A DNA stretch of 32,713 bases from a virus: IMG/VR virus record IMGVR_UViG_3300002026_000105, one strand, 5' to 3'. The notes under the pieces are model-generated. The model had not been told where the DNA came from, searched no databases, and saw only the letters and a list, made by a program, of their open reading frames with translations. A program made the translations under genes and the position numbers. Below, piece by piece: positions 2,994 to 32,713 of the stretch. Each line of letters begins with the position of its first letter. Within the stretch, counting starts at the first letter, position 1.

Positions 2994-4328
2994 TTAAGAT
3001 AACCAATTTAATGTTACACTCTTGATCCTTATTTCATTTCCACCATCTGGAGCTGATCTATCACAAGCTAAACCTGTAAGTATAAAAGGCACTGCAGTAG
3101 ATATATAACCTGTCATAGATACGGTATCTACAACTGAAGATGTCTGTGTAACGGTCATATCAAGCTTTAAGTCATCTTCACCCATTATTTCCACTGACAT
3201 AATACCACTAGTCTCATATAAACCTGTAGCAGTAATAGGGGTAACACTTAGTGTTATTTCTTGAACACCATCTTCTAAAAGAGCTACAAGAGTTTCAGGA
3301 ACAACATAGGTTTGAACATCATAAACTATTTTATATTGTGCTATCCTACCAGTTGCCCATTGGATATTGTCTAGATTACCTCTCTTATTTTTTGTTAGTG
3401 ACAGTATTGCTTCACCTTCTTGGAGGTCTACATTCATTACAGAGTAAATAAAGGTATCAGCAGAAAGTTTATTATCTGTATTAAGATATAAAGCATCACC
3501 AATTTTTAATCCACCAAGGGTTGTTTCTGTTGCAACCTCAAGAGATATATTACCAGCAACATCAACTAGGATACCTGGTGCTGTAGAATTGGCAGCTCTA
3601 CCAGGAACAGGGATAGAGTACTCATCAAAACCTGTCATACTTTCCCAAAGACCTGTACCAATTGGTGTAGAGAAATAAGCATTAGAACCTGGTCCTACCA
3701 TTTCTGATACTATCTCTATACCAGTAAGACCGATAGTAAAGGTAATAGGTGACTCATTAAATAAGCCAATAAGATCTCCTAAAGTAGAAGTAGCAGCAGT
3801 AAGTCCATTTTCTGGTAAGGTAAAGCTAGGAGCTGCTGGAGGTTGTTCATCAATGTGCATCACAAATGAGTAACTTGTAATATCATCTAGACCTAAATCT
3901 GCAAGGGTATCTGTCAATGCAGGGACTGTGGTAAATAGTATCTCTGAAGAACCCTGTGTAGCAGGAGTATAAACTCCATCTTTGATCATTACAGAACCTA
4001 GGGTATCAGCGGTAGCAGGGTCGCCACTGCCACCTCCTCCTGACTCTGAAAAGTATTTGGCGTATTGTGTTTCATTCCAAACTTGGATATCATCGTACTC
4101 AAAACCTGGTAGATCTGAAGTTGATAAGAACACGATATATTGATCAGCATAGGCATTAAGATAAATACCAGCGGGTGTTTTTACCGCCAAGATAACTGAC
4201 CTGATATCGGTTTGATCCTGGATACTGATAATTTCTGGGTACAGTGCTACCAATGCTTCTGCATCTAGGATAGCTCCTGAAAATAATATAGGGTCTGAAT
4301 ATGCAGCCGTTTTAAACTTGTTTGACAT
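2994..4328 (-). CDS. Tail fibre / receptor-binding protein 2 (444 aa)
   Basis: The first ~100 aa align with fibre 1 (MS.KFKTAAY...YIVFLS.S..P.FEY.DIQVWN.TQYAKYFSESGGGG). One LGG.KIG repeat is present (TETTLGGLKIGD) and the C-terminus is unrelated. SD AAAAAGGAGATACAAA precedes the ATG. Confidence 0.8.
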   Translation of the reverse strand: MSNKFKTAAYSDPILFSGAILDAEALVALYPEIISIQDQTDIRSVILAVKTPAGIYLNAYADQYIVFLSTSDLPGFEYDDIQVWNETQYAKYFSESGGGGSGDPATADTLGSVMIKDGVYTPATQGSSEILFTTVPALTDTLADLGLDDITSYSFVMHIDEQPPAAPSFTLPENGLTAATSTLGDLIGLFNESPITFTIGLTGIEIVSEMVGPGSNAYFSTPIGTGLWESMTGFDEYSIPVPGRAANSTAPGILVDVAGNISLEVATETTLGGLKIGDALYLNTDNKLSADTFIYSVMNVDLQEGEAILSLTKNKRGNLDNIQWATGRIAQYKIVYDVQTYVVPETLVALLEDGVQEITLSVTPITATGLYETSGIMSVEIMGEDDLKLDMTVTQTSSVVDTVSMTGYISTAVPFILTGLACDRSAPDGGNEIRIKSVTLNWLS

Positions 4329-10298: not shown

Positions 10299-13200
10299 TT
10301 ATCTTGATCTTGCTTTTGATATTACTGAAACTTCTGCTTCTTTAAACTCAGGGAGTATACTTACTATCAGTATCTTTTCTTGACACTCTATTTTAAGAGA
10401 TGTACCTAAAGATCTTTGATACTCAGGTTGTATCCTAACTCTAGTATATCCACCCTCATCCCAATCTCCAGGGTTTATCACCCACTTTCTAGTTTGCTCT
10501 CTAGTATCATCGGTATCCACTACGTAAGATGTTCCTATTACGGTTACAGCTTGTTTAGCTTCTGAATATATAGTTATGACCCAATTACTGAGTATACTCT
10601 TTTGGTTGAGGTTAAACCCAAAGTAAGGTGTCTGTAAAGAGAGAGGTACAACTGCGTCTCCTGTATCATAGGTATAAGACCATTGAGAGGTGTTATTGCT
10701 TATCACTATACCACTAGTTGTATCATAGAACTTGAGATCAGTTTGATCAGGTAGTTTAATATTCTCTGTAACGATATTATCTCTCACCCATATTATGGAA
10801 GTAGGTGTATCTAATACTAGAGTATTATCTCTAGGAGAATAGGTACCTGACAAGATATCAGGTTTTCTATTAAGGCGTTGAAACTTTTCTAGGGCTCTAC
10901 CACCTGTAAATGTATAGAGAGAGTTATCAAAACTAGAGAGAAAGTAAATTATTGTAGGGGTAGATGCGATATATCTCAGCCCATTAGCAGAAGCTACCTT
11001 AGTTTTGTTATTAAATACCCCTGTTACCCTATCTAACTCTACAGTATAGATATTAAGACCATCAAAGAGGTATTTTTGTCCATAAAGATCGAAATTACTA
11101 AAGCTTCCTGCTATATCATTACCAATAGGGTAAAGATCAGAGTCTGGTTTTAAGAATATCGTCAAATTGTCTGTCAAAATGACACCATTATCGTAAGTTA
11201 CCCCTATTTTTGGTGATAGATAAGTAGATTCCAAGTAAAGGATGTCAGTTTTATCACTATCTACCAATTCTTGCCCATTATTTAGCGTAGAGAACCCATA
11301 AACATCATCAATATAGGTATCAATAGCATAAGAACCTATTGGGGTAGAGACGAGAGGTATTCTATAACCTAATATTTCTATATTTGTTGATGAAAGAGGT
11401 TTAATAGTCACCAATTTATCACCAGTATCTATAGAGTTAGAGTAAGAGTTGTTCATTATTGATACAACTTTACTAGCTGTTCCTGGTGCTATCAAAGAAG
11501 AGAATAACATTCTGTTATTATAGTCTACAGATGAAGCAAATGGTGAGAGAGATACAGCATTAGTATCTATCAAGTTAAGGGGTGATATGGTATTGATCTT
11601 GTAAAGGGTATCAGTAACCTTATTTACCCTGTTTGGTGGAGCTTTTATTACTTTGAATAAGGCAAACTCCTTTTTCTCATTTTGATACAATACTAATTCA
11701 TCATTCAATATCTGAGGTTGATAGAGTGGGTTGATGGAACCGATATTAGTAGCTAACACACCAAGGGTATCAGATGGGTTTGTATCTAGGATAGCCACAG
11801 AAAAGAAGCTAGGCACTTCATTGATAAGCCCTACTCTTATTTCAAATGGCCTAGTTGGTGTCTGGTTGTAATTGTTAGTCAATTTACCATAGGCATTTAT
11901 CAAGGTATTAGTATTACTTTGTGTTACTTGGAAGAGGGAAGTAGTATCTCTCTTAAATTGTGGTGTGTAAGTATAAACATCAGTTGCAGAGGCAGTAAGT
12001 TTAAGAGTAATATCTTCATAACCCCATGTTGCATTACTGTTCAAGATAGAGGATACAACATAAGGAGCGTCTGGGTATACCACAGTAGATGAGAAATTGA
12101 TAAAGTCTGTATATCCTATCAATCCAGTAGCCTGTATCTTGGTTGCTGTAAATAAAGGTCTAGCCGCAGAGTTTTTAGCAGTTATAATATGTCTAGTTTT
12201 ACCGTTCAGTAATTGAGGTAAAGCGTAAGAACCTGTAAATATGGTAACAGAATAAGCTGTCTTGTCAAAGATATAAGAGATATTATTAAGGTTTCCAACA
12301 AGGTTTATCAGATAAAGACCATTCTCATACTTGTAAGTATAGAGATACCCAAATGTAGAGAACCCACCCATCATGGAATTAAGTACACCCCCACCAGAGA
12401 CACCAAGAAATGGTGTAAAGGATCCTGTAAAAGACATACTGTTTATAGCACCAGTTGATCCACCAACTAGAACCTGGTTATTATATTCGATAAAAGCTTT
12501 AATGTCTCCTGAACCTACTATATTACCGTAATTAGTAATATGACCAGGCATATCAAAAGGGTATATCTCACCAGATAATATATTACCAGACCCTATCCTT
12601 CCTCCACCTCCTGAGAATACCAAGTTACCATCAATAGTATCAAGGTGATAGATATTTTCACTACCTAGAAAAGCACCATTTTGAGAGAATCCGGTGGCAG
12701 AGGAGTAAGGCACCCATGCCGCACCAGTAAAAAAACCGGTCCTTCCCCCATCTCCGGCTACTACTATCCTTCCATCATCAAGAGATACAGAACACCTAAT
12801 TGCGTTTGAGCCTAGGACTGTTGCATTATCACAAGGGAGGTTTCTTGTAACACCTTGTGTGTAAGCGTATTTCTCCACTCCCATAAACTTCATTGTGATG
12901 AATTGGTATCTTAATTCTGGAGTACTTTGGTTTACACCTATACTCACCCAGTTATCACCTGCAGCAAATATTCTCAAAGCTCCAGTAGTAGAGGATGGAT
13001 AAGCGTACACATTCCAATGGATACCATCTGAAGACATAATAACAGAGTTATTACCATTAGAGTAAACCCAAGTATCTTTAATATAATAGTGAGAGCTGTA
13101 AGGCCAAGAGGCACCTTCTTTTGCTGGAGCATATACAGTACCATTCACTGTACCTATATTCCAAGTAACACCATCATAAGAGTAGGCAGGAACACGCCCT

Positions 13201-16927: not shown

Positions 16928-16940
16928 ATATATAGTTATG
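16928..16940 (-). promoter_or_regulatory. Conserved late-gene motif CATAACTATATAT (copy 1)
   Basis: Exact 13-mer on the coding strand, 28 nt downstream of the capsid terminator and directly before the SD of the 440-aa gene. Confidence 0.45.
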
Positions 16941-16967
16941 CTTTAATAGAGAGTATACCCGTAGACG

Positions 16968-16995
16968 TAAAAAAAGAGACCCTTTCAGGTCTCTT
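16968..16995 (-). terminator. Intrinsic terminator after the major capsid gene
   Basis: Minus strand reads AAGAGACC-TGAAAG-GGTCTCTT followed by TTTTTTAC. Confidence 0.8.
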
Positions 16996-17038
16996 CAATT
17001 TTACCTAGCCAACGGCTGAGGTTCAATTTCTCATACAG

Positions 17039-17051
17039 TTATATATGCTCA
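17039..17051 (-). promoter_or_regulatory. Third copy of the TGAGCATATATAA core shared with the 46-bp repeat
   Basis: Exact 13-mer, 1 nt after the capsid stop codon. It is followed ~45 nt later by the terminator hairpin (stem at 16995-16974; T-run ends ~16968, ~63 nt from the inferred start). Confidence 0.3.
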
Positions 17052-17052
17052 C

Positions 17053-18441
17053 TTAATATGCAATAGTATCAGATACGAACGCTATTACACAGTTATGTCC
17101 TGGACCTCTAAGAGCCAAGGTTCCATAGAATTGGAGGATACATTGCAATACTGGTCCACCTGATGCTAAGGAAGCAGGTTGGATAGTAACATAGTCATCA
17201 ATTATGAAACCATAAGTATTACCCTTCATATCAGGGGTAGATACACCATTTACTGGCTGAGCACCAGGAGCATTACCAACGATACCGGTATTAGTTGGAG
17301 TTTCAGAGTTTGTCAACATGACATATTCAATAGACTCTTCATCAATAAGGTAGGCGGTAAATCTTGGGCAATAAGGATCTTCCCAAACTTTATCGGCATA
17401 AGATGTAGAGAACATGAACTTCATGTCATTAAGGCCCATAGCCACTTCATTCTTTTTACCCTTGCTTGGAGAGTTAGTATCCTGCCAGTAAGTTGTCTTG
17501 GCATTTACTTCATCCATAATTATCTGATAGTCATCAGGGTTTACTATCATCCAATTAGCTTTTCCACCAGCAGATCTAACATCTTTTACCGCTCTGTTAA
17601 GGGCAGAAGAGAACTTTTCACCTGATGCTCTCTTAACAAAGTTACCAGCTAATCTTGATGGGAATACTGATCTATCTACACCGTAGAAAGAGGTACCAAT
17701 ATAAGTTGCCCAGTCTCCACCTGTTCTCATTTCAAGAGAAGGTAACCAACCGGCAAGGCCCATTGGAAGGAGAGGAGTATTACCTGTTCTACAACCTTGG
17801 ATACAGATCCAGTCAGTTGCAGCCCAAGTTTCTATTGCTGTTGCAGTAAATGTGATAACATTACCATTGATGGCAGTTACGGTATTTACTGATGTTCTAA
17901 GGGCAGATGATGGTAATTTACCATTTGTTACCTGGAAAGTAGAACCGATATCTAACTTTACTACAGTAGAGAATGTTCCTAAATCTGCAGTGTTGCTTCC
18001 TACCTGTGTGGTAATAGCATCGTGAGCAGGTCCAACTTCACCAAAACCCATACCATAAAGAGAGGTTGCAGTAAGTCTGCGGAAAGCAGCAGTACCATCA
18101 AACATCTTTATTACAGGGATAGGTACGATAGCTCCTCTGATATTTTCAGAGGCAAATACTTCTTGTGCTCCAACATTAAAGATTGAGAAAAGTTGTCCTG
18201 AAGTAACGGCAAACTGTACATTCTTAGTTGTACCAGCAGCGGCATTCAAGGCGGCTACTGTAGCATCACCAGAGCAAGCTCCACCTGATCCATAGTTAGC
18301 AGCAAAGTTGTAAGACTTACCTGTTACCCTGTTTTTTACGATCTCTTTCAATACTGGACTATCTCTCCATAAGAGTTGTTCCATTTCTTTGTCAGTATAA
18401 AATACTTTTAATACATCTTGTAAGTTCTGTTCTAAAGCCAT
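17053..18441 (-). CDS. Major capsid protein (462 aa)
   Basis: The position is scaffold-like gene, then this gene, then a strong terminator. SD is AAAGGAGAATAATT and the size is typical of HK97-fold capsid proteins. The family was not verified by search. Confidence 0.7.
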   Translation of the reverse strand: MALEQNLQDVLKVFYTDKEMEQLLWRDSPVLKEIVKNRVTGKSYNFAANYGSGGACSGDATVAALNAAAGTTKNVQFAVTSGQLFSIFNVGAQEVFASENIRGAIVPIPVIKMFDGTAAFRRLTATSLYGMGFGEVGPAHDAITTQVGSNTADLGTFSTVVKLDIGSTFQVTNGKLPSSALRTSVNTVTAINGNVITFTATAIETWAATDWICIQGCRTGNTPLLPMGLAGWLPSLEMRTGGDWATYIGTSFYGVDRSVFPSRLAGNFVKRASGEKFSSALNRAVKDVRSAGGKANWMIVNPDDYQIIMDEVNAKTTYWQDTNSPSKGKKNEVAMGLNDMKFMFSTSYADKVWEDPYCPRFTAYLIDEESIEYVMLTNSETPTNTGIVGNAPGAQPVNGVSTPDMKGNTYGFIIDDYVTIQPASLASGGPVLQCILQFYGTLALRGPGHNCVIAFVSDTIAY

Positions 18442-18456
18442 AATTATTCTCCTTTG

Positions 18457-18981
18457 TTAAAACTTGATATTTCCGGCCTTGGCCTTCATATTCTTTATCT
18501 TTTCCATCTGTGTATCTACTTCTGATACCTCTTTTTCTGGTTCTACTTTGACCTCTATCTCGGTCTCTACAACTTCAGGTTTCTTGGCAAACTTGGAAAG
18601 ACTTTGTAGCTTGTTTTCCAATTGTTCAAGAGCCTTATTCACAAACTCACCCTCTTTAGTATCATCCCATTCTTCAACCTTGTTCTTCATCTCTTGGATA
18701 TCTTCATATAGATCAGCTATTGCATCATTACCACCAGTCAACTCTGAATAAAAGTCCTTGTATGGATCTAATTTACTACCATATTTCTGTGATAGGTCAT
18801 TTAACCCATATTGTTTCTCTTGATGCTGGTATGTTCTAGTGATACCACCAATAACATCATCCATAAGTAGCTTTTCATTGTTGTCTACCCTTTCTGTTAG
18901 GATCTGAACTTGGTTAAGAATACTCTCCATAATAGCTATTAGAGGTTCTAATTGTTCCTTATCTTGTTCCATATCGTTCAT
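18457..18981 (-). CDS. Scaffolding protein candidate (174 aa, acidic, helical)
   Basis: Lies between portal and capsid genes, is E/D/K-rich, and is preceded by the late motif plus AAGGAGAGCAATT. Confidence 0.55.
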   Translation of the reverse strand: MNDMEQDKEQLEPLIAIMESILNQVQILTERVDNNEKLLMDDVIGGITRTYQHQEKQYGLNDLSQKYGSKLDPYKDFYSELTGGNDAIADLYEDIQEMKNKVEEWDDTKEGEFVNKALEQLENKLQSLSKFAKKPEVVETEIEVKVEPEKEVSEVDTQMEKIKNMKAKAGNIKF

Positions 18982-18994
18982 AATTGCTCTCCTT

Positions 18995-19007
18995 ATATAT
19001 AGTTATG
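18995..19007 (-). promoter_or_regulatory. Conserved late-gene motif CATAACTATATAT (copy 2)
   Basis: Exact 13-mer abutting the SD of the scaffold gene (CATAACTATATATAAGGAG). Confidence 0.45.
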
Positions 19008-19020
19008 TTTCTCCGGAGCT

Positions 19021-20793
19021 CTATACAGAGACGGGTAACTCATTTGTTGGTCCTTGTACCATTGGTGGTTTAGCTGGCGTAGGTGGTGGAAGAGGTGGTT
19101 GTAACTCTTCATTTATCTCATCCATCATCCCTTTTAGTTGGTTTATGAATAAAGTAAGGTTCTCTAATACCTCTAACTTTTCATCATTTGCATCTAACCT
19201 AAAGAGAGTATTGACAGATTGGTTAAAGAGTTGTTGTATATTCTGTACCTCATAAAAGTAGAATACTGGTGTTCCTTCATCATCCTGACCATCAGGCCCA
19301 TTCTCTATAACCCTTTCTATAGTCTTTTCATTTATATCCCAAGCTGCTGTCTGGATAGAGTAGGCTTGTTCAAGATCTGGCATTTCTAATAAGGTACTAG
19401 CCATAGACGGATCAATTACCTTCATGGCTATCAACTTTTCTATCTGTTGCATCTTGACTACAGGATCTTTGGATAGACTATTTGAAGCCGAATATTGGAT
19501 ATTAAACATCTCTCTTTCTTGTTTGATATCTTTCCAAGTTATAGGTGATCTAGCTCTTCTGTTTGGTAAAACATCTTCATCTTTAGGGAATATGTCTATC
19601 ATCCTTTCTGCTAGATCTTTCATTAGTCTAATATAATTTTGTAAGATAACATTGTGTCTTTCACTTTCAACATCTTCTAGTGTCTGTAAAGCTACTCCAG
19701 AATTAAGACCAGTAGGTTTCTTGGACTGAGCAGAGAGTTGAGAGATACCGGACATGTTGTACAGTTTCTGCTCAAATAGTTCTAGTAATTGGATCCACAT
19801 ACCATCAATAGGGGATGGTGTAGTTACAGAGATAGGGTTACCACCATTAGCTTGCATATTATACTCAAACACATCACCAATTTTAGCGGCAGCTACCATT
19901 GAAGTTTTAATGTCACTTCCTCTTGGTACGAATACCAGGTTAGCTGGTGATAGGTTAGCAGATGCAGAGATTTTGTAACATAGATCATCTATCATCTTTT
20001 GGATTCTATAACTAACATCTATCAAAGAGTCAGAGAAAGAACCCTTAATAGGTTCCTTGTAATATAACCACACAAATGGAGGGACAGAGTATTCGATAGT
20101 TCTCTCGGCTAATAACTGATCTCCAATATACTTGTACTCTTTCTTGCCTAATAGATCCCAATATATCCTATAGTCTACATAGGCATTAGGTGTATCATTG
20201 ATACTCTGGGCAAAAGGTGAGCCTTCTTTAATATCATCTATCAAGGCTATTAAAGGATATTGTCTCCTTCTTAATTCTATCCTAGTAAGTTTACCTTGCG
20301 TCATCTCTGCTGCATCATAAAACAGTTCCCAAGGTTTAACTACCTCAACTGACTTATTTTCATCTCTAACCCACAAGACTCCCATATCAAACACTAGAGC
20401 ATCAGTAACTGCTGCGACTGCCTTCTTGTACACATCTTGTTTATCAAAATACTCATCAAAGTAAATCTGTGCATTTCTGCAAGTCTTGACTGTCTTGAAT
20501 GTTCCTAATACTGGGTTGTAAAATGGTCTAACTTTAGTCTGTGATATCTTGCTAACTACCGTATCTACCGCTGATCTTAATACATTTAATGATGGTATAT
20601 TTCCAGATTGTTCATCTTGGATATTATAGTAGGCTATAACATTACCATAGGTATTATGTATATCCTCCATCCTGTTTCCATTATTGTAATATCTATTAAA
20701 GTTTCTTCTATACTTTACATCTCTCCTAGATAGGAAACCTTCCATAAGAGACATATCTAATTGTACATATTCTTTACTTCTCTTGATCTTCAT
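19021..20793 (-). CDS. Portal protein candidate (590 aa)
   Basis: Size and position (TerL, small ORF, this gene, scaffold, capsid). Pro-rich C-terminal tail. Not verified by search. Confidence 0.65.
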   Translation of the reverse strand: MKIKRSKEYVQLDMSLMEGFLSRRDVKYRRNFNRYYNNGNRMEDIHNTYGNVIAYYNIQDEQSGNIPSLNVLRSAVDTVVSKISQTKVRPFYNPVLGTFKTVKTCRNAQIYFDEYFDKQDVYKKAVAAVTDALVFDMGVLWVRDENKSVEVVKPWELFYDAAEMTQGKLTRIELRRRQYPLIALIDDIKEGSPFAQSINDTPNAYVDYRIYWDLLGKKEYKYIGDQLLAERTIEYSVPPFVWLYYKEPIKGSFSDSLIDVSYRIQKMIDDLCYKISASANLSPANLVFVPRGSDIKTSMVAAAKIGDVFEYNMQANGGNPISVTTPSPIDGMWIQLLELFEQKLYNMSGISQLSAQSKKPTGLNSGVALQTLEDVESERHNVILQNYIRLMKDLAERMIDIFPKDEDVLPNRRARSPITWKDIKQEREMFNIQYSASNSLSKDPVVKMQQIEKLIAMKVIDPSMASTLLEMPDLEQAYSIQTAAWDINEKTIERVIENGPDGQDDEGTPVFYFYEVQNIQQLFNQSVNTLFRLDANDEKLEVLENLTLFINQLKGMMDEINEELQPPLPPPTPAKPPMVQGPTNELPVSV

Positions 20794-20802
20794 ATTGTCT
20801 CC

Positions 20803-21039
20803 TTAAAACGCTTCTTGATACCTATTATTTAGTTTATCAAACTCATCCTGTCTCTTTATATCCATCTTGCTACCATCTTTGAAAGTAACCGTAATTATCA
20901 CTCCGTGTTGTGCAGAGTTTATCAACTCTTTAATAATGGAATAATTAGGGTCAGAAGCTGACATCTTGTCTAACCTCTTTTGTTTTATCTCTTGTTCTCT
21001 TATTACTCTATAAGCCGCTAGTAATGCTTTATAGTCCAT
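20803..21039 (-). CDS. Hypothetical protein (78 aa) between terminase and portal
   Basis: ORF preceded by the late motif and AAGGAGATACTAG. Confidence 0.6.
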   Translation of the reverse strand: MDYKALLAAYRVIREQEIKQKRLDKMSASDPNYSIIKELINSAQHGVIITVTFKDGSKMDIKRQDEFDKLNNRYQEAF

Positions 21040-21052
21040 CTAGTATCTCCTT

Positions 21053-21065
21053 ATATATAGTTATG
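21053..21065 (-). promoter_or_regulatory. Conserved late-gene motif CATAACTATATAT (copy 3)
   Basis: Exact 13-mer abutting the SD of the 78-aa gene. Confidence 0.45.
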
Positions 21066-21067
21066 TT

Positions 21068-22657
21068 TTATTGAGGTTTTGTATAGTTTTGCCAAATATA
21101 TCGCATAGAGTAGAGAACAGCATCTAGAAGATCAGGGTGGAACGCACCATCATCTATCTCTCTAGTAAGTTCATCTTTATCATTTCTCCCCCAAATAGTC
21201 TTTAATGCTTCATCAGCAAATATACTATCCTTCTTTACTTTGAATATACCTTTTCTTGTTTCTTCTTGTAGTAATTCTATGGCCATATCTTTATTAGCTT
21301 TATAGGCATCTAGACAAGATAGACCAAATTGTTGGTTAAGTTCAAAACTGATCTTCTTTCCAGCTCCTCCTGAGTCAGAGTAGATATAAAAATGTTTATC
21401 AGGTATAGAGGTGAATAAGGATGAGGTGGTAGTATACTTGATACCTTCTTTTATCTTATCAGCTAACTCTGTAACTCCTGTTCTGTTCCCTTTATGTTCA
21501 AAGACTATCCACCTTTCTGGTGATGAAGTAGAGTAGAGTATGATAACAAACCCATCACTATCTCTGAACCCATAGTCTAACCCTCCAGTAAAATGGAGAT
21601 CACCTCTAGGTTGTGAGTTTATCCAAGCTTGTAATTGGGTATCTGTATAAAAGTTATTGTCACCTAACCTATAAACCATGGCATCCGTATCATAGCAGAT
21701 TCTTCCCAAGTATTCTCTTTGAAACAATGGACTTTCATTAGTTAAACCTTTTTCCTTTTTAACTTCATCTAATACCTTTTCATAATTATTGATAAATGGA
21801 TTCTGACTTAGATTCCAGTTCATCCTTTTACCTGGGTATTTATCCAAGTTAGTATACATTTCTTCCCAAAAAGAACCACCTATTCTAGGTCCAGTTCCTG
21901 ATAATACTAATGTTCCACCAGTATCCAATAACATAGGTTCACAGATATCTTGTATTAGATAAGATAAACTATCCTGACTTTGAGCTTCATCTATAATAAT
22001 GATATCATAATGTCCACCTCTCATATTCTCTCTACTAGCTGTAGAAGCATTACCTTTAATATAAAACTCACTACCATTCTCTATCTGTATGTATCCTTCT
22101 GATCTATTGTCTTTTAACACATCTATCCCTAGTTTTTCACAATAACTTATCATCTGGTTAAACATTTGGTCCATACCTACTCCAACCGTTCTTGCTATAT
22201 AGAGTGTCTTAGAACCAGCACGGCACTGCATAGAATCTAAACATTTCAGAATATGTCCATCAGTCTTACCAGCTCTACGACCTGCCATCTGGAATATTCT
22301 TTTATCTTTACTTAGGATATATTCTTGTTGTATATCATGAGCTAATAAATGAACTCTATATCTAAGAAAGTCTTCATCCATCTTTTTACCCTTATTGATA
22401 TACTCATCTATAGAGTCTAACACACCAGGTTCTAGTAACCTTTCAGCCATGAATTGCCTGGCCCTGTAATCCGAGTTTGATAGAGCATCCTTCATCAGCT
22501 TCTGTAAAAATACATCATAATAGGTAGACATGGTTTTACCATTCTTTACTTTAGTGTTCATTATATCCAAGAACGCTTCTTGTATCATATGTTTATATGA
22601 GGTACTTCCTGGTTTTCTTCCTGCTGGGTTACCAGATTGTCCTGGTTTATATGGCAT
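21068..22657 (-). CDS. terL: Terminase large subunit (529 aa)
   Basis: Walker A is MAGRRAGKTDG and Walker B is YDIIIIDEAQ. The C-terminal nuclease-like region includes IYSDSGGAG. The N-terminus carries GQSGNPAGRKPG. SD is TTAAGGAGTAAT. Confidence 0.9.
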   Translation of the reverse strand: MPYKPGQSGNPAGRKPGSTSYKHMIQEAFLDIMNTKVKNGKTMSTYYDVFLQKLMKDALSNSDYRARQFMAERLLEPGVLDSIDEYINKGKKMDEDFLRYRVHLLAHDIQQEYILSKDKRIFQMAGRRAGKTDGHILKCLDSMQCRAGSKTLYIARTVGVGMDQMFNQMISYCEKLGIDVLKDNRSEGYIQIENGSEFYIKGNASTASRENMRGGHYDIIIIDEAQSQDSLSYLIQDICEPMLLDTGGTLVLSGTGPRIGGSFWEEMYTNLDKYPGKRMNWNLSQNPFINNYEKVLDEVKKEKGLTNESPLFQREYLGRICYDTDAMVYRLGDNNFYTDTQLQAWINSQPRGDLHFTGGLDYGFRDSDGFVIILYSTSSPERWIVFEHKGNRTGVTELADKIKEGIKYTTTSSLFTSIPDKHFYIYSDSGGAGKKISFELNQQFGLSCLDAYKANKDMAIELLQEETRKGIFKVKKDSIFADEALKTIWGRNDKDELTREIDDGAFHPDLLDAVLYSMRYIWQNYTKPQ

Positions 22658-22692
22658 ATTACTCCTTAATTGCTAACTAATTGTTATTACAG

Positions 22693-22705
22693 ATATATAG
22701 TTATG
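22693..22705 (-). promoter_or_regulatory. Conserved late-gene motif CATAACTATATAT (copy 4)
   Basis: Exact 13-mer, 25 nt downstream of the terminator at 22730-22755 and ~35 nt upstream of the terL SD. Confidence 0.45.
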
Positions 22706-22729
22706 TTTGAGAGCTCGGTATACTTGACA

Positions 22730-22755
22730 TAAAAAAAGAGGCCGTTAAGCCTCTT
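22730..22755 (-). terminator. Intrinsic terminator separating early/middle genes from the packaging/structural operon
   Basis: Minus strand reads AAGAGGC-TTAACG-GCCTCTT followed by TTTTTATG. Confidence 0.8.
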
Positions 22756-22759
22756 GGTA

Positions 22760-23233
22760 TTATAGAGTATCTCCTTTATACTCATATTCACCTACCTCTT
22801 TTATCTTCTCAAAGTTTATCCTGTACTTGGTACCCTTTATCTTGGTAATATACCCTTTCTCTTGCAAAGTTAGTAGATAAGGGAAATAGTCTTTGGGTAA
22901 TATACCACTCAAGCTTTGTAGTTTGTTAGTATTTAATGGGACCTCAAAGGTGGTGAGGTCTCCGTGCTTGGGGAAATAGTCTATTATTGTCCAAAGCAAT
23001 TTAGTCTTGGAGAAACCTAGATCCTCAAATACCTTGATCATTATCTTGCTCTTGCTAGTTTCTCTTACCTCTTCTCCGTAATAAGCATCTAACTCTTGCT
23101 TTATCAGGATAGATTGTTCAGGCGTTATTACCTCTTTACTAAGAGCATAGACATTAAGGGCGTAACAATAAGTCTTATCGTGTGGTAACCATCTTACCAT
23201 CTCTTGTGCTATATTTTCTTTATTCTCTATCAA
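22760..23233 (-). CDS. DNA-binding-like protein (157 aa), possible small terminase by position
   Basis: TTG start with AGGAGGATGGAC upstream, overlapping the upstream stop (TTGA). The C-terminal segment LTLQEKGYITKIKGTKYRIN looks winged-helix-like. The function is a guess. Confidence 0.5.
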   Translation of the reverse strand: MIENKENIAQEMVRWLPHDKTYCYALNVYALSKEVITPEQSILIKQELDAYYGEEVRETSKSKIMIKVFEDLGFSKTKLLWTIIDYFPKHGDLTTFEVPLNTNKLQSLSGILPKDYFPYLLTLQEKGYITKIKGTKYRINFEKIKEVGEYEYKGDTL

Positions 23234-23905: not shown

Positions 23906-24430
23906 TTATCTCCTCGTATTTCTGTATAGTATTTGTAACCTTTTAGCGTGAGCGTAGATCCAAGATCTAGGGAGGTAGGTATCTAATTTTAACATAGCCT
24001 CTTTGAAAGTTTTGGCTTTGTAAACATCAAACAGTATCTCCTTCCATCTAGGGCTATCTTCTTCTATCTCCTCTATCACCCACCTAGTATCCTCTTTAAT
24101 AGGTCTTGGTGGTACACTAAGGTTAGGTGGATAGGGAGTTTCCAGGTCTAGTTTCTTTTGTTTATAGTCATACAAACAATACAAGACATCGTGCCCTATC
24201 CTCTTGGCAGGGGATGTAGAGAACCAAAGGGGGTTTTTGAGGTACATCTCTATAAACCTGATGGCACTATTATGTGATGTCTCTTCATAGTTCACCTTGT
24301 TCTTGGCCTTATAGACCGTAATAGAGTGAGCAATATTCTTGGCTTCTCTATACATCTCCGCCAATATATCAGGGGATCTAGAAATAAGGTAGATGTCTTG
24401 TAGAGTACGGTACTTGGTCTCATTTATCAT
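23906..24430 (-). CDS. Hypothetical protein (174 aa), weak sigma-factor-like pattern
   Basis: The segment EETSHNSAIRFIEMYLKNP...PAKRIGHDVLYCLYDYKQKK resembles the spacing of sigma region 2 (D..QE.f.k....f......ia.n...d..rk). The C-terminal helix is basic. Pattern-level only. Confidence 0.55.
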   Translation of the reverse strand: MINETKYRTLQDIYLISRSPDILAEMYREAKNIAHSITVYKAKNKVNYEETSHNSAIRFIEMYLKNPLWFSTSPAKRIGHDVLYCLYDYKQKKLDLETPYPPNLSVPPRPIKEDTRWVIEEIEEDSPRWKEILFDVYKAKTFKEAMLKLDTYLPRSWIYAHAKRLQILYRNTRR

Positions 24431-24804
24431 GGTCTATCCCTCTTGGCAAAAACCCATGGTGTATTATCCATAAACTCTTGATACATAACTAGGTATATAC
24501 CACCTCTTGTTCTAGCCATCATCTCCAAGTCATGTGCAAATGAGTGACAACTTGAACATAATTTTAATATATCTTCTACCTTTTCTTTATATAGGTGATC
24601 ATAGTTTTTATGGTGGATATCTATCCTCATAGGTTTCTTGTATATATCCTTTCTGATATATTTCTCCCACCTCTTTTTTCCACATATATCACACGAACAA
24701 GCCTTATCATCTGTATAAGACTTTCTTAACTCTCTCCACCATTTCGTTTTGTAATACTCTTTTAATGTTGTAGTATGTTCAGGTGGAGTTACTTTACCTC
24801 TCAT
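24427..24804 (-). CDS. HNH nuclease (125 aa)
   Basis: CSCDICGKK ... IDIHHKNYDHLYKEKVEDILKLCSSCHSFAH, i.e. CxxC ... HH ... CxxCH of the beta-beta-alpha-Me fold. Confidence 0.7.
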   Translation of the reverse strand: MRGKVTPPEHTTTLKEYYKTKWWRELRKSYTDDKACSCDICGKKRWEKYIRKDIYKKPMRIDIHHKNYDHLYKEKVEDILKLCSSCHSFAHDLEMMARTRGGIYLVMYQEFMDNTPWVFAKRDRP

Positions 24805-26908: not shown

Positions 26909-27106
26909 AAGAACTTAAGAACTTAAAACACTTACTTTTTACCTATTTTACTGTTCCCAATATATTCTCTTCTCTATATCTATAATATATATATTTATAA
27001 GTACTAAGTACTATTATATAATATATATATATATTATATAGACTTAGACAATCTAAAACAGTACTTATGATGTTTTTTCACAAGTACTAACAAGTTCTAA
27101 GTTCTT
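26909..27106. promoter_or_regulatory. Extremely AT-rich non-coding region bounded by inverted repeats; candidate replication origin and/or middle promoter region
   Basis: IR-L AAGAACTTAAGAACTT (26909-26924) is matched by IR-R AAGTTCTAAGTTCTT (27092-27106). There are four AGTACT sites (26999-27012 as a tandem AAGTACTAAGTACT, 27060-27065, 27082-27088) and long (TA)n runs at 26975-27043. The region lies immediately 3' of the primase-helicase gene. Confidence 0.45.
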
Positions 27107-27107
27107 G

Positions 27108-29099
27108 TCATATTACCTTGAAATCCTGTTGTAGATTACCAGTAATATAGTGACACTTACCGTTACTTTTTTTAACACTATATCCAGTAATACTATTGAA
27201 CTTTTTAGCTAATCCCTTCTGTGACAAGTATATTTTATTATATCCAATATATTTACTATAACTTACAAATCTATCAAATAAATCTGATGTGTTTATTGTT
27301 TCGTTATTACAGATATAATATGGGTGTCCAGCTAAGCTATTAGCTTCTTGACTATCTAACAACCACTGTGATACTATATCTAATCCTAATTCTATTTGTT
27401 CTTTTTTGGCAGAAGTCATAGGTATTTTTGTCCAGTCTCTTGATGATATATTTCTATTTAATAGATCATACATAAGCCTTGGTAATCCACCGTTATCAAT
27501 TTCTTTCCATAGATTACCAAAATAGATATGATCTTGAAGATAGGCATCACCACAATCTAAGATTAAGTAGCGTCTATCATCAGCAGATACAGGAGCTACC
27601 CAATCTTCGTTAGTTGTAAATATAAAAGATTTATGGTTCTTGCTTTCAAAAGTATCCTTGCCTTTGAAAGTTATCTCTTCTCTCCTTGATGTTATCATAT
27701 TTTTTAATCTAGATTCACTTTTTTTATCTCCACCCCACATAGCTTCATCTGAACATATTAAAAGTTTATTCATAAGGTGAGCGTTAAATCCTCCAACAAG
27801 ATCATCAATAGAAGATATTTCCATAAACATATCACCAAATAATCTAGAAAATACTTCAGAAAAGGTTCCCTTACCAGATCCAGATTTTCCTCTTATTGCA
27901 ACCGCTATTCCCATCTTATCACCAGGTTTTTGTATAATATGAGCCATCCAATCTAATAGGAACTCATATAATACTTTATCACCTTGACAAATATTATTCT
28001 GAATATGATGTCTGTAAATATCCCAAGAACCAGTAGTTTTTGGTTCTACTGGAAACCCCCTAAATAAGTTAAAAAATCTGGGAGATGTTTTATTTTTAGG
28101 ATCAAACACCAAACCTTCTAGACACTCTTGTGTATCAAACCAATCTACAAAAGGTTCTACTTTTACTTGGATAGTTTTCTTTCCAAATTGTTTTGTCTCT
28201 GTTGTATTAAGGTGAGAATATTTTTGAGCACCATTTATTTTGTTAAAAAATTGTTTTTGTTCTATATCGTATACCATAACTTGTCCACCAACTAAAACTT
28301 TAACAAGTCCAGAAAAAATAGTATGTTCTATCTCTTTTATTTCTTCAAACTTTCTTGGTTCTTTTCTATCAAACCTGTGAGTGCTCTTAATAATAGTAGA
28401 TACTTCTCTATCTGATAAAGGTTTACTTTGTGCTCTATTAAGGGTATCTAGAAAAGTTTCCATCTCTTCATCACTATTACCATTACTATGTAATGAACAA
28501 GCCCATCTAAACATAGTATCGTTTCTGCTACCTTGGTCAAAATTAAGAGGTATAGGTTCTTTTTTCTCTTCTTCTAGTATGAACCCATAAAGATCAGTAA
28601 GGATACTTTTTTCACCAGTACTCTTGTAAACTTGACTATTAGGGTTTCCAAAAAAGAAGCGAGCTGCGTCTTTAACTTGTTTATCAAAGAATGGGTACTT
28701 GGTAGTAAGTTTCCTTAACCACATGGCAACTTCCTGTTCTTTTAGTAATTGCTTTATAGGAAAATATACGTGATACTTGTCTCTAGCGGTCTTACCATCC
28801 TTCTCTTTCTGATGACTTTTAGATGTGGCTAAATAATAACTATAACCTAGGAACATTTTATTAAACTCTTTAATACCCACCCAATCCTTGGGGTCATCAG
28901 AGTGTGTATTATCAATATCTCCAAATAACCAATCTGTTGATATAAAGTTATTATTTGCCCTTTTATTATCCTTGAACTCTGACATCACATGGTCAAACTT
29001 TACTGTCTCTTTAAAATGGGCTAAACTATCTACCTCTACCTTATTAGGGTAATGGTTATTAAATTGTTCTCCACTCTTGTTACTTGTAAATAGTATCAT
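27108..29099 (-). CDS. Primase-helicase: N-terminal AEP (prim-pol) domain fused to D5/P4-type SF3 helicase (663 aa)
   Basis: AEP motifs are LFGDIDN and DKYHVYFPI. Walker A is AIRGKSGSGKGTFS and Walker B is LLICSDEA. Confidence 0.85.
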   Translation of the reverse strand: MILFTSNKSGEQFNNHYPNKVEVDSLAHFKETVKFDHVMSEFKDNKRANNNFISTDWLFGDIDNTHSDDPKDWVGIKEFNKMFLGYSYYLATSKSHQKEKDGKTARDKYHVYFPIKQLLKEQEVAMWLRKLTTKYPFFDKQVKDAARFFFGNPNSQVYKSTGEKSILTDLYGFILEEEKKEPIPLNFDQGSRNDTMFRWACSLHSNGNSDEEMETFLDTLNRAQSKPLSDREVSTIIKSTHRFDRKEPRKFEEIKEIEHTIFSGLVKVLVGGQVMVYDIEQKQFFNKINGAQKYSHLNTTETKQFGKKTIQVKVEPFVDWFDTQECLEGLVFDPKNKTSPRFFNLFRGFPVEPKTTGSWDIYRHHIQNNICQGDKVLYEFLLDWMAHIIQKPGDKMGIAVAIRGKSGSGKGTFSEVFSRLFGDMFMEISSIDDLVGGFNAHLMNKLLICSDEAMWGGDKKSESRLKNMITSRREEITFKGKDTFESKNHKSFIFTTNEDWVAPVSADDRRYLILDCGDAYLQDHIYFGNLWKEIDNGGLPRLMYDLLNRNISSRDWTKIPMTSAKKEQIELGLDIVSQWLLDSQEANSLAGHPYYICNNETINTSDLFDRFVSYSKYIGYNKIYLSQKGLAKKFNSITGYSVKKSNGKCHYITGNLQQDFKVI

Positions 29100-31025: not shown

Positions 31026-31038
31026 ATATATAGTTATG
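31026..31038 (-). promoter_or_regulatory. Conserved motif CATAACTATATAT (copy 5), overlapping the HNH-AP2 stop codon
   Basis: Exact 13-mer, followed by ATC and then the ATG at 31022. Confidence 0.35.
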
Positions 31039-31468
31039 GAAAATTAAGAAAAGCTTCATCACCCCATAGTTCTCTTGCTTTTGCATCATAGGCTCTAGCA
31101 GCATCTTCTGGAGTAATATAACAACCTAAATATTCTTTTTTCAAACCATCTCTAATAGTAGCATACCATTTTTTTCCATTAAAACAAACTCCTTTATAGC
31201 CACTGGCATTTGAACATCTTAATGCTTCTTCCCTTTTCTTTTTACCATAATGGTGTAAATACTGATGATCACTTCTAGTCATACAAACAAGGTTTTCTGC
31301 TGTATTATTACTTGGATCTCCATCTAGATGATGTATTACCTGATGTTTGAATACTTTACATCCAGTAAGCTTTTCATAGACATAGACATGTTGTGATCCA
31401 TACTTTCCATTACTCCAATAACCATAATTTTTATACCACAATATCCCGTCATAATTTCTATTATCCAT
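31034..31468 (-). CDS. HNH homing endonuclease with AP2 domain (copy 2)
   Basis: 144-aa ORF with HHLDGDPSNNTAENLVCMTRSDHQYLH and GYKGVCFNGKKWYATI...LGCYITPEDAARAYDAKARELWGDEAFLNF. The ATG overlaps the upstream stop (TAATG). Confidence 0.85.
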   Translation of the reverse strand: MDNRNYDGILWYKNYGYWSNGKYGSQHVYVYEKLTGCKVFKHQVIHHLDGDPSNNTAENLVCMTRSDHQYLHHYGKKKREEALRCSNASGYKGVCFNGKKWYATIRDGLKKEYLGCYITPEDAARAYDAKARELWGDEAFLNFP

Positions 31469-32028: not shown

Positions 32029-32056
32029 ATTATATCACATCTTAACCGTGTCTAAA
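32029..32056 (-). promoter_or_regulatory. Sigma70-like promoter P2 (TTTAGA-16 nt-TGaTATAAT)
   Basis: Minus strand reads GTTTAGACA CGGTTAAGATGTGA TATAAT with an extended -10 TG. It lies upstream of the 42-aa ORF SD. Confidence 0.55.
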
Positions 32057-32168: not shown

Positions 32169-32196
32169 ATTGTATACTATTATTATCTTGTCTAAA
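32169..32196 (-). promoter_or_regulatory. Sigma70-like promoter P1 (TTTAGA-16 nt-TACAAT)
   Basis: Minus strand reads GTTTAGACA AGATAATAATAGTA TACAAT. It has the same 9-mer and the same spacing as P2, and it directly follows the late-operon terminator. Confidence 0.45.
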
Positions 32197-32269: not shown

Positions 32270-32665
32270 CTATAAACTATGCCACACAAGTAGCGCCGTT
32301 TCACCTAAAATAGCTACTAATAAAACTTTATTTAAAAGTTTTGATAGTTTGAAGGATCTTTCTAAGCTTTGAAACTGCATCAGTTGATCTTTCGATATCT
32401 TTTCTAGCTGTGTCAATTGCAATTGATCTTCTTTTATCACTCTCTTCATATCCTCTGATAATTTGCTCAAGTTCTCCAATCTGACCAAGTCTATAAGTCT
32501 GACTTTTTCTAAGTCTGTCAATTGAATCTGAAGACTCCTGTTCGAGTCTTCTATAGTCTTCAATTGATACAAACCTTGATCTGCTAATTCCGATAAAGAC
32601 TCCTGAGGAAATAACCACACCGAGCACAAAAGAAAGAAACACCAGTAAAATAGTTTTTTGCACAT
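32270..32665 (-). CDS. Envelope protein: signal/lipobox-like N-terminus, Leu-heptad coiled coil, hydrophobic C-terminus (131 aa)
   Basis: The ATG lies 2 nt after the HNH-AP2 stop in the closed circle, with AAGGAATAATA upstream. The N-terminus is MCKKLFYWCFFLLC|S and the C-terminus is LLNKVLLVAILGETALLVW. Confidence 0.55.
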   Translation of the reverse strand: MCKKLFYWCFFLLCSVWLFPQESLSELADQGLYQLKTIEDSNRSLQIQLTDLEKVRLIDLVRLENLSKLSEDMKRVIKEDQLQLTQLEKISKDQLMQFQSLERSFKLSKLLNKVLLVAILGETALLVWHSL

Positions 32666-32699
32666 TATTATTCCTTAAAATTAAGATAAGCTTCTTCAC
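32328..32699 (-). CDS. Alternative-frame ORF: N-terminal TM plus charged helical domain (123 aa, GTG start), i-spanin-like architecture
   Basis: It overlaps 32270..32665 on the same strand in a different frame for 338 nt. The TM segment is TILLVFLSFVLGVVISSGVFIGI. Only GTG starts are available (32699, inside the HNH gene, or 32663). Confidence 0.3.
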   Translation of the reverse strand: MKKLILILRNNNVQKTILLVFLSFVLGVVISSGVFIGISRSRFVSIEDYRRLEQESSDSIDRLRKSQTYRLGQIGELEQIIRGYEESDKRRSIAIDTARKDIERSTDAVSKLRKILQTIKTFK

Positions 32700-32713
32700 C
32701 CCATAACTCTAGG
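32623..32713. repeat. Second copy of the 91-nt terminal overlap (identical to 1..91)
   Basis: Exact identity to bases 1-91 by direct comparison. Confidence 0.95.

Follow-up and report, generated by a model that had tools for sequence, protein, structure and literature searches.

Late promoters of phage T4, which are read by gp55, carry TATAAATA at -10, need gp33 and the sliding clamp gp45, and have no upstream box. Promoters of the extracytoplasmic function (ECF) factors sigma-W and sigma-X of Bacillus subtilis consist of TGAAAC or TGTAAC, a spacer of 16–17 nt, and CGTA or CGTATA, and the promoter core of phages T7, SP6 and K11 is CACTATAG. Two further arrangements are known from phages: the sigma factors of phiEco32 (gp36) and Salmonella phage 7-11 serve middle and late promoters with the 9-bp element tAATGTAtA, which are hard to detect by standard promoter scans (PMC4331800), and the late activators RinA, ArpU and Alt of Gram-positive phages are encoded immediately upstream of the packaging genes and control one late operon (PMC3152322). 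Here, a 13-nt motif, CATAACTATATAT, is described from a 32,713-nt stretch of virus DNA (IMG/VR record IMGVR_UViG_3300002026_000105; the whole stretch is called the window). The motif is highly likely to be a promoter of one kind or another, and there is about an even chance that it is the core of a phage-specific late promoter read by a divergent, phage-encoded sigma-like factor. The closest described case is that of phiEco32 and 7-11. A phage-specific late promoter was the lead idea of the original prediction, made from the sequence alone; it is the reading best supported by conservation at gene junctions, strand and intergenic bias, a second sequence box at fixed spacing and apparently leaderless starts, although several of its details did not hold.

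The motif is present in six exact copies in the window, all on the minus strand, on which every window gene and all long open reading frames (ORFs) are encoded. The number expected by chance is 0.01, and at least six copies were found in none of 100 dinucleotide-preserving shuffles. No near-matches with one mismatch and three with two mismatches were detected, two of the latter on the minus strand. Five copies had been listed in the original prediction, all on the coding strand and all intergenic or at a gene end; strand and positions were confirmed, and a sixth copy, inside the 1760-aa ORF, has to be added, to which the intergenic placement does not apply.

22693–22705, minus strand: motif copy at the head of the late operon, exact match, 35 nt 5′ of the ATG of the large terminase gene (TerL), with its own Shine-Dalgarno (SD) sequence 21 nt downstream of the motif
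21053–21065, minus strand: motif copy at the junction of the TerL stop and the 78-aa gene, AAGGAG directly adjoining
18995–19007, minus strand: motif copy at the junction of the portal gene (590 aa) and the scaffold-position gene (174 aa), AAGGAG directly adjoining
16928–16940, minus strand: motif copy 3′ of the capsid gene and a terminator, 5′ of the 440-aa gene, with one additional C between motif and AAGGAG (…TATATcAAGGAG)
31026–31038, minus strand: motif copy in the early region, overlapping the TAA stop of an HNH-AP2 gene, without GTATAC box
10566–10578, minus strand: sixth motif copy, inside the 1760-aa ORF, about 100 codons 5′ of its stop

Identity among the six copies extends over 13 nt, or up to 16 nt with the AAA that precedes three of them, as had been observed (a fourth is preceded by AAAG), and is followed on the 5′ side by a non-conserved gap of 12–13 nt to a GTATAC box. 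Direct contact with the SD, claimed for three copies, was seen at 18995 and 21053, and at 16928 the single C intervenes. The copy at 31026 does lie almost at an ATG, 3 nt before that of a 56-aa ORF, which is without SD and does not appear among the calls of the JGI gene caller, and the copy at 10566 has no start codon within 60 nt.

The GTATAC box (GTATAG once) stands 16–17 bp 5′ of the ACTATA hexamer of the motif in four of the six copies, and intrinsic terminators precede two of them.

22718–22723, minus strand: GTATAC box, proposed -35 of the TerL promoter, 16 bp upstream of ACTATA
22736–22755, minus strand: intrinsic terminator, 8-bp stem with 4 GC pairs and a T-run, ending the early/middle transcription unit
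19021–19026, minus strand: GTATAG, variant -35-like box, 17 bp upstream of ACTATA, overlapping the portal stop codon
16953–16958, minus strand: GTATAC box, proposed -35 of the copy before the 440-aa gene
16973–16996, minus strand: intrinsic terminator 3′ of the capsid gene, preceding the copy at 16928
10592–10597, minus strand: GTATAC box of the intragenic copy, within the 10-bp palindrome GAGTATACTC

The copy at 21053 has a weak upstream box only (CTATAC, 19 bp from ACTATA, outside the 16–17 bp spacing). That two copies, 22693 and 16928, follow terminators had been recognised before; the T-runs end about 23–25 nt before the motif, not 25–28 nt. A fixed distance of 16–18 bp between two boxes is characteristic of promoters of the sigma-70 family, and the arrangement of a -35-like box, a -10-like box spanning about -12 to -7 and initiation some 6 nt further on would correspond to the layout of bacterial holoenzyme promoters. 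The original prediction was right in that no sigma-70 consensus is present, but a pair of the -35/-10 type does exist in four copies, so that a “-10-only” late promoter is no longer tenable. The likeness to T4 gp55 is therefore partial: a short A/T-rich element of the -10 type, no canonical -35, late structural genes downstream and a small divergent phage sigma (a candidate here) are common to both, whereas the motif sequence is another one, the upstream box accompanies most copies, and homologues of gp55, gp33 and the clamp (gp45) were found neither by Pfam nor by PHROGs.

Housekeeping promoters appear to be something different in this genome. A scan of the window for them listed no motif copy on the minus strand, and neither ACTATA nor TATATA offers the A-11/T-7 pair of sigma-70 or sigma-A promoters at a workable spacing. 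Two canonical promoters were located in the early region:

32029–32056, minus strand: canonical sigma-70-type early promoter, TTTAGA-16-TGnTATAAT
32169–32196, minus strand: second canonical early promoter, TTTAGA-16-TACAAT, just after a terminator

Host polymerase would thus read ordinary promoters, and the motif would be an element of another kind.

Relatives of the phage were obtained from metagenomes as about 160 loci fetched via TerL homologues, 142 of them non-redundant, with a GC range of 31–66 %. Such homologues are plentiful, many on 29–35-kb contigs, and TerL identity is 40–56 %. The gene order TerL, 78-aa gene, portal, scaffold-position gene, capsid, 440-aa gene and giant protein is common to them, and the replication modules differ. 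The core ACTATATA recurs in relatives at the junctions where the window has its motif, with CCTATATA (CCTATA) or CTTATA in GC-rich lineages; conservation at orthologous positions had been set as a check on the prediction, and it is thus seen. In the 50 nt preceding the gene, ACTATA was located in 20 of 44 cases for the 78-aa gene, in 14 of 36 for the 440-aa gene, in 8 of 35 for the scaffold gene and in 8 of 77 for TerL; the portal (2/48), capsid (0/46) and giant 1760-aa (1/24) genes rarely or never have it, which mirrors the window. In 1.3 Mb of sequence from relatives, ACTATATA was counted 88 times on the coding strand and 30 times on the opposite one (p = 9e-8), and 61 of the 88 coding-strand copies are outside long ORFs, in sequence that makes up 27 % of the total (p = 8e-17), both p-values being optimistic in that near-duplicate lineages are included in the counts.

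The upstream box is conserved as well. GTATAC and ACTATA on the coding strand are separated by 17 bp in 12 instances and by 16 bp in two, with none on the other strand and a background of about 0–1 at other distances. The pair usually comes directly after a terminator T-run, as TTTTTTGTATAC-N17-ACTATATA in four loci (L014, L018, L145, L114), and in L026 the variant core CCTATA has the same spacing from its upstream box. Before the 440-aa gene, the order of terminator, GTATAC, 17 bp and ACTATA is found in relatives as in the window.

A repeat without a function in gene expression, be it the footprint of a mobile element, a homing-endonuclease target, a recombination or packaging signal, or chance, is extremely unlikely in view of these distributions. 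One copy does overlap the end of an HNH-AP2 gene and the genome has three HNH genes, but six copies against 0.01 expected exclude chance, orthologous sites are kept despite diverged flanks and mostly without an adjacent HNH gene, and the bias for strand and intergenic sequence together with a fixed distance to the start codon would be unexpected for packaging or recombination sites.

Immediately 5′ of the core, an extension of 3–6 nt is common to all copies within one phage and different between phages: CATA in the window, AATG in L014, (A/G)GTG in L025, AGG in L118, CTAC in L138, GTA in L145 and AGTGAG in L056. The ATAACT part of the motif, considered as a possible -10 in the original prediction, is accordingly not what the family conserves; its core is ACTATATA, and the CATA portion is peculiar to this phage. 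As orthologous sites keep the core while their flanks are fully diverged, and the extensions change in concert, the reader of the motif would be evolving with each phage, which implies co-evolution with a factor that each phage encodes.

Phage-specific bases upstream of an invariant TATA are also what is seen in the T7 group, and an unrecognised T7-like phage RNA polymerase might read the motif with TATA at -4 to -1, its start at the G or A that opens the SD, and its specificity determined by bases at about -8 to -12 that differ from phage to phage. CACTATAG is similar to the core ACTATA(G/T), relatives show ACTATATAGGGAGG and CCTATATAGG, the copies are on one strand, where they precede late genes and follow terminators, no SD would be cut short if transcription began directly behind TATA, and there is a conserved 1760-aa protein without assigned function. 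Nevertheless, the conserved block is 13 nt with a separate box near -35, shorter than and unlike the contiguous T7-type block from -17 to +6 (about 20 bp), and the 1760-aa protein lies within the tail/injection part of the structural module. Furthermore, the genome is complete. The source contig (JGI 3300000939 KEY_1000733, 51.7 kb) carries two copies of the last window gene at a distance of 32,622 bp, and the window therefore represents a single full unit of a phage genome that is circularly permuted or concatemeric and measures about 32,622 bp. In all ORFs of this genome, no Pfam or PHROGs match to an RNA polymerase, no DxDGD motif and no coherent T7-like catalytic set were found, and phmmer queries of the PDB with the 1760-aa and 773-aa proteins returned nothing useful. 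A T7-like promoter is on this evidence very improbable, and it is hardly probable that a polymerase is hidden in the 1760-aa protein or in small conserved proteins acting together. Being slightly longer than one unit, the window repeats itself at approximately 1–91 and 32623–32713.

The spacing between TATA and the start codon falls into two classes: either 5–6 nt without SD, or 14–18 nt with an SD that starts right after the motif. Examples of the short distance are CTTATA-TGGGCG-ATG, ACTATA-TATAT-ATG in L014, and ACTATA-TATATC-ATG at the copy at 31026 of the window. The 78-aa gene of L014, which begins 5 nt behind ACTATA, without SD and at the homologous N-terminus, would hardly be translatable if its mRNA did not begin at or next to the ATG, and on this spacing a start codon 5–6 nt after TATA without SD would imply leaderless mRNAs.

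The same tight spacing would suit a signal acting on the mRNA, i.e. an A/U-rich translational enhancer beside the SD or an RNase E/Y-type cleavage site at which late RNA is trimmed, both of which had been offered as alternatives in the original prediction. In its favour, the motif shows coding-strand specificity, two copies touch the SD and a third is separated from it by 1 nt, its spacing from the start codon is tightly constrained in relatives, and its flanks are A/U-rich and unstructured, as is preferred by single-strand-specific RNases and by ribosomal protein S1. A short coding-strand element conserved 5′ of the SD or start is known also from the T7 gene 10 epsilon and the mycobacteriophage start-associated sequences; however, these act on mRNA, have no partner at -35 spacing and are not known to occur away from starts. 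The enhancer fails at the copy at 22693, 35 nt from its start codon, at the intragenic copy without any start and at the GTATAC box with its fixed 16–17 bp, and neither form explains the placement after terminators or the phage-specific extension. An RNase processing site fits worse than a promoter: folding of the flanks is not more stable than that of shuffled sequences (z from -0.76 to +1.59), with the motif unpaired, no RNase III hairpin is present, and Rfam returned no match in the window, where tRNAs are also lacking. A signal of this kind is consequently regarded as improbable.

The intragenic copy offers a further view on constraint. Both of its boxes lie in the codons AGT ATA C … ACT ATA TAT of the peptide K-S-I-L…V-(I/V)-T-I-Y (KSIL…VITIY in the window), and the same codons are used in the window, L018 and L026. 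In six other relatives part of the peptide (T/S-I/L-Y) is kept with other codons, and the boxes are absent. Since the codon choice is kept in three lineages, the DNA, and not the protein alone, is constrained in some lineages; the copy at 10566 is proposed to be an internal promoter for the tail-fibre genes downstream.

As for the reader of the motif, only two non-structural proteins are widely conserved in the relatives, both encoded just before TerL:

23906–24430, minus strand: 174-aa protein, candidate sigma-like factor by fold similarity and conserved synteny upstream of TerL
22760–23233, minus strand: 157-aa protein, last gene before the late promoter, conserved in 26 loci

The original prediction had named “the 174-aa protein” for in vitro testing, which is apt for the ORF at 23906–24430 with its sigma-like fold, but not for the other ORF of 174 aa, at 18457–18981 in the scaffold position. 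Word-indexed protein searches returned almost no homologues of the former, and exhaustive HMMER search returned 58. The hidden Markov model (HMM) of the family detected it in 26 of the 28 relatives with at least 4 kb upstream of TerL, mostly 0.06–2 kb before that gene. Its AlphaFold (AF2) model, based on a 54-sequence alignment, consists of two helical domains and a linker, with a mean confidence score (pLDDT) of 93.8. In Foldseek queries of the PDB, the 19 best matches of the model were all sigma factors (probability up to 0.97, E 0.07–0.9), including M. tuberculosis sigma-H and sigma-L, R. sphaeroides sigma-E, S. coelicolor ShbA, sigma-B, sigma-S and sigma-28. The alignments cover full-length two-domain sigma factors, beyond region 4; the N-terminal domain of SigE superimposes over about 72 residues with a template-modelling (TM) score of 0.57–0.6 and a root-mean-square deviation of 3–4 Å. 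Named matches among viral models (BFVD) were mostly phage sigma factors or RNA-polymerase subunits. The 174-aa protein is thus probably a very divergent two-domain sigma factor, the weakest link in the argument, and that it reads the motif is plausible, at the level of an even bet.

The best structural matches are ECF sigma factors, which are two-domain readers of about 170–190 aa, as is proposed for the 174-aa protein, and their promoters are likewise bipartite with a strict 16–17 bp spacer, a -35 ending in AC and a -10 ending in TATA. Membership in the ECF group is not established, for the 174-aa protein has no sequence similarity to it and lacks the combination of Sigma70_r2 and Sigma70_r4 by profile. 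At E ≤ 1 none of 54 homologues (alignment A4) matched a Sigma70 Pfam family, and in a second alignment (A2, 24 members) a single member matched Sigma70_r2 with E 0.008, which is below the Pfam threshold; Sigma70_r4 was matched in neither alignment. An anti-sigma partner is not evident, as neither an anti-sigma factor nor an RNA polymerase inhibitor was identified.

Compared with phiEco32 and 7-11, the phage has in common host-type early promoters, an A/T-rich element of 9–13 bp that ends in TATA and precedes structural genes on one strand, poor visibility to standard promoter scans and, as a candidate, a divergent sigma-70-family factor of its own. It differs in the element itself (ACTATATA against AATGTATA), in the GTATAC -35-like box at 16–17 bp, in a candidate sigma that sequence profiles do not detect, and in having no homology to phiEco32-like phages. 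The system is best filed as one of the phage-encoded sigma/promoter kind, with a logic as in phiEco32, parts of which recur in T4 gp55, the SPO1 sigmas and the ECF promoters of Bacillus, and with sequence membership in none of them. It appears to have features of its own, namely the strict bipartite form, promoters fused to a start codon or SD, and specificity bases that vary per phage.

Several observations weigh against a phage sigma as the reader. The upstream box is missing from two of the six copies, and a start 6 nt after ACTATA would cost ACTATATAAGGAG-type copies in relatives part of their SD. The sigma assignment is drawn from fold similarity, with Foldseek E values of 0.05–1 and global TM scores of 0.3–0.4; comparison of the 174-aa family with Pfam, NCBIfam, PHROGs and PDB sequence profiles gave nothing significant, and neither did hhalign against E. 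coli RpoE. A contingency table of sigma-like gene versus motif is uninformative, as nearly all relatives have both, which makes their association suggestive at most, and the near-duplicate lineages behind the p-values belong here too. Neither megablast with 8 kb nor tblastn with TerL and the 174-aa protein detected a cultured relative in a set of 50,697 deposited phage genomes (INPHARED). Finally, GTATAC is a perfect palindrome, better suited to a dimeric activator than to sigma region 4.

This last point leads to a late promoter read by the host holoenzyme, with a housekeeping or an alternative host sigma, and with the help of a phage activator on GTATAC at about -35, for which the 157-aa protein (possibly with a winged-helix domain) or the 174-aa protein, as an activator of RinA/ArpU type, could be candidates; we consider this possible but rather unlikely. 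The positional evidence for a promoter fits it equally well, the palindrome is extended to GAGTATACTC in the intragenic copy, and the conserved 157-aa gene, directly before the late promoter, has a faint match to a helix-turn-helix (HTH) profile (IclR, E 0.86). Well-known late activators have their genes just 5′ of those for the terminase (RinA, PMC3152322), and the regulator candidate here is also encoded upstream of the packaging genes; unlike the single promoter upstream of terS in the RinA, ArpU and Alt systems, however, six copies are distributed here through the late region and inside a gene, and no Pfam match to these families was found. The host holoenzyme is also difficult to reconcile with conservation of ACTATA over 31–66 % GC, probably in very different hosts, with the poor quality of ACTATA as a housekeeping -10 (no T at -7, or wrong spacing, and none flagged by the scan), with the phage-specific bases 5′ of ACTATA, which point to a phage-encoded factor reading the -10, and with the match of the 174-aa model to full-length two-domain sigmas. 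The 157-aa protein may be a small terminase or a co-regulator. Its gene is parted from TerL by the terminator and the late promoter, the N-terminus of TerL has a DUF5681 domain, and a separate small terminase was not recognised.

If a phage sigma is the reader, the host RNA polymerase core would be redirected by a sigma-70-family, ECF-like two-domain factor, most likely the 174-aa protein encoded at 23906–24430, whose own gene would be expressed from host-type promoters of the early/middle region. The factor would read ACTATA(TAT) as a -10-like element along with the phage-specific bases just 5′ of it (CATA here), and at the stronger promoters GTATAC, 16–17 bp upstream, would be read as a -35-like element, giving the bipartite late promoter GTATAC-N16/17-ACTATATAT. 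We infer that transcription starts at the motif, late in infection, about 5–6 nt after ACTATA, so that late mRNAs would begin at the start codon (leaderless) or with the first bases of the SD. The copies before TerL and the 440-aa gene would restart transcription after the terminators, and the copies that precede the 78-aa and scaffold genes, as well as the intragenic one ahead of the tail-fibre genes, would boost transcription within the operon.

In some distant relatives a canonical TTGACA-N17-TAnnnT promoter and a leaderless TerL are found at the same place, and leaderless late mRNAs would seem to characterise the group in general, irrespective of the kind of promoter. The sigma-like ORF is missing from both testable relatives with a canonical TerL promoter, a link to the proposed phage sigma that is suggestive only. 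In five loci (L036, L039, L044, L080, L086) the canonical promoter stands 6–9 nt before the TerL start codon, without SD.

The analysis provides a transcription map for an uncultured family of phages of about 30–35 kb, common in freshwater, sediment, soil and wetland metagenomes, of whose proteins almost none match known families and which has no relative among the deposited phage genomes searched. If the 174-aa protein is a sigma factor, a family has been missed by sequence profiles, and phage-encoded sigmas would be more widespread than annotated; these proteins may represent a new deep branch of the sigma-70 superfamily, with promoters that give leaderless or SD-first mRNAs and a specificity diversified phage by phage. 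Protein variants of each phage and their 3–6-nt extensions would form potentially orthogonal sigma/promoter pairs, useful in the study of how -10 recognition evolves and as expression parts, and the tight linkage of promoter and start codon or SD is a testable case of promoters for minimal 5′ leaders.

Other recognised genes of the window encode a Bro-N protein, a tail-fibre chaperone domain and a head-fibre-like domain, in addition to the following.

21068–22657, minus strand: large terminase TerL
27108–29099, minus strand: primase-helicase

Three HNH endonuclease genes are present on the minus strand (46–525, 31034–31468 and 24427–24804), two of them of the HNH_3 plus AP2 homing type, and the HNH-AP2 gene at 31034–31468 ends within the motif copy at 31026–31038. 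In three relatives (L019, L100, L072) the ORF between the 440-aa and the giant gene looks HNH-AP2-like by eye from its C-terminal peptide. The region 26950–27060 of the window is, on the minus strand, very A/T-rich, with (TA)n runs and several TATAAT-like hexamers after a terminator, and is probably a host-type promoter region of the middle operon that includes the sigma-like gene.

A scan of IMG/VR with TerL as single protein gave no match. The exact 19-mer scan of the same collection returned one contig (L001/L002, IMGVR_UViG_3300035698_015035), an unrelated viral contig of 34 kb with the identical 20-mer CATAACTATATATAAGGAGA at L002 9181–9200, before a 617-aa gene; it has no proteins in common with the window, no sigma-like ORF and a single copy in 21 kb, and the match was rejected as chance or convergence. 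Four contigs from a GTDB genome scan (L175–L178) belong to metagenome-assembled genomes of Methanotrichaceae, Dehalococcoidia, Paceibacterota and Spirochaetia, an inconsistent taxonomy which probably reflects mis-binned phage contigs and not host assignments. Repeated 10-mers in other relatives were protein repeats or DnaA boxes, not promoters, and in L039 two dense clusters of DnaA boxes (TTATCCACA), at 40–110 and 3160–3230, probably mark a host-DnaA-dependent origin.

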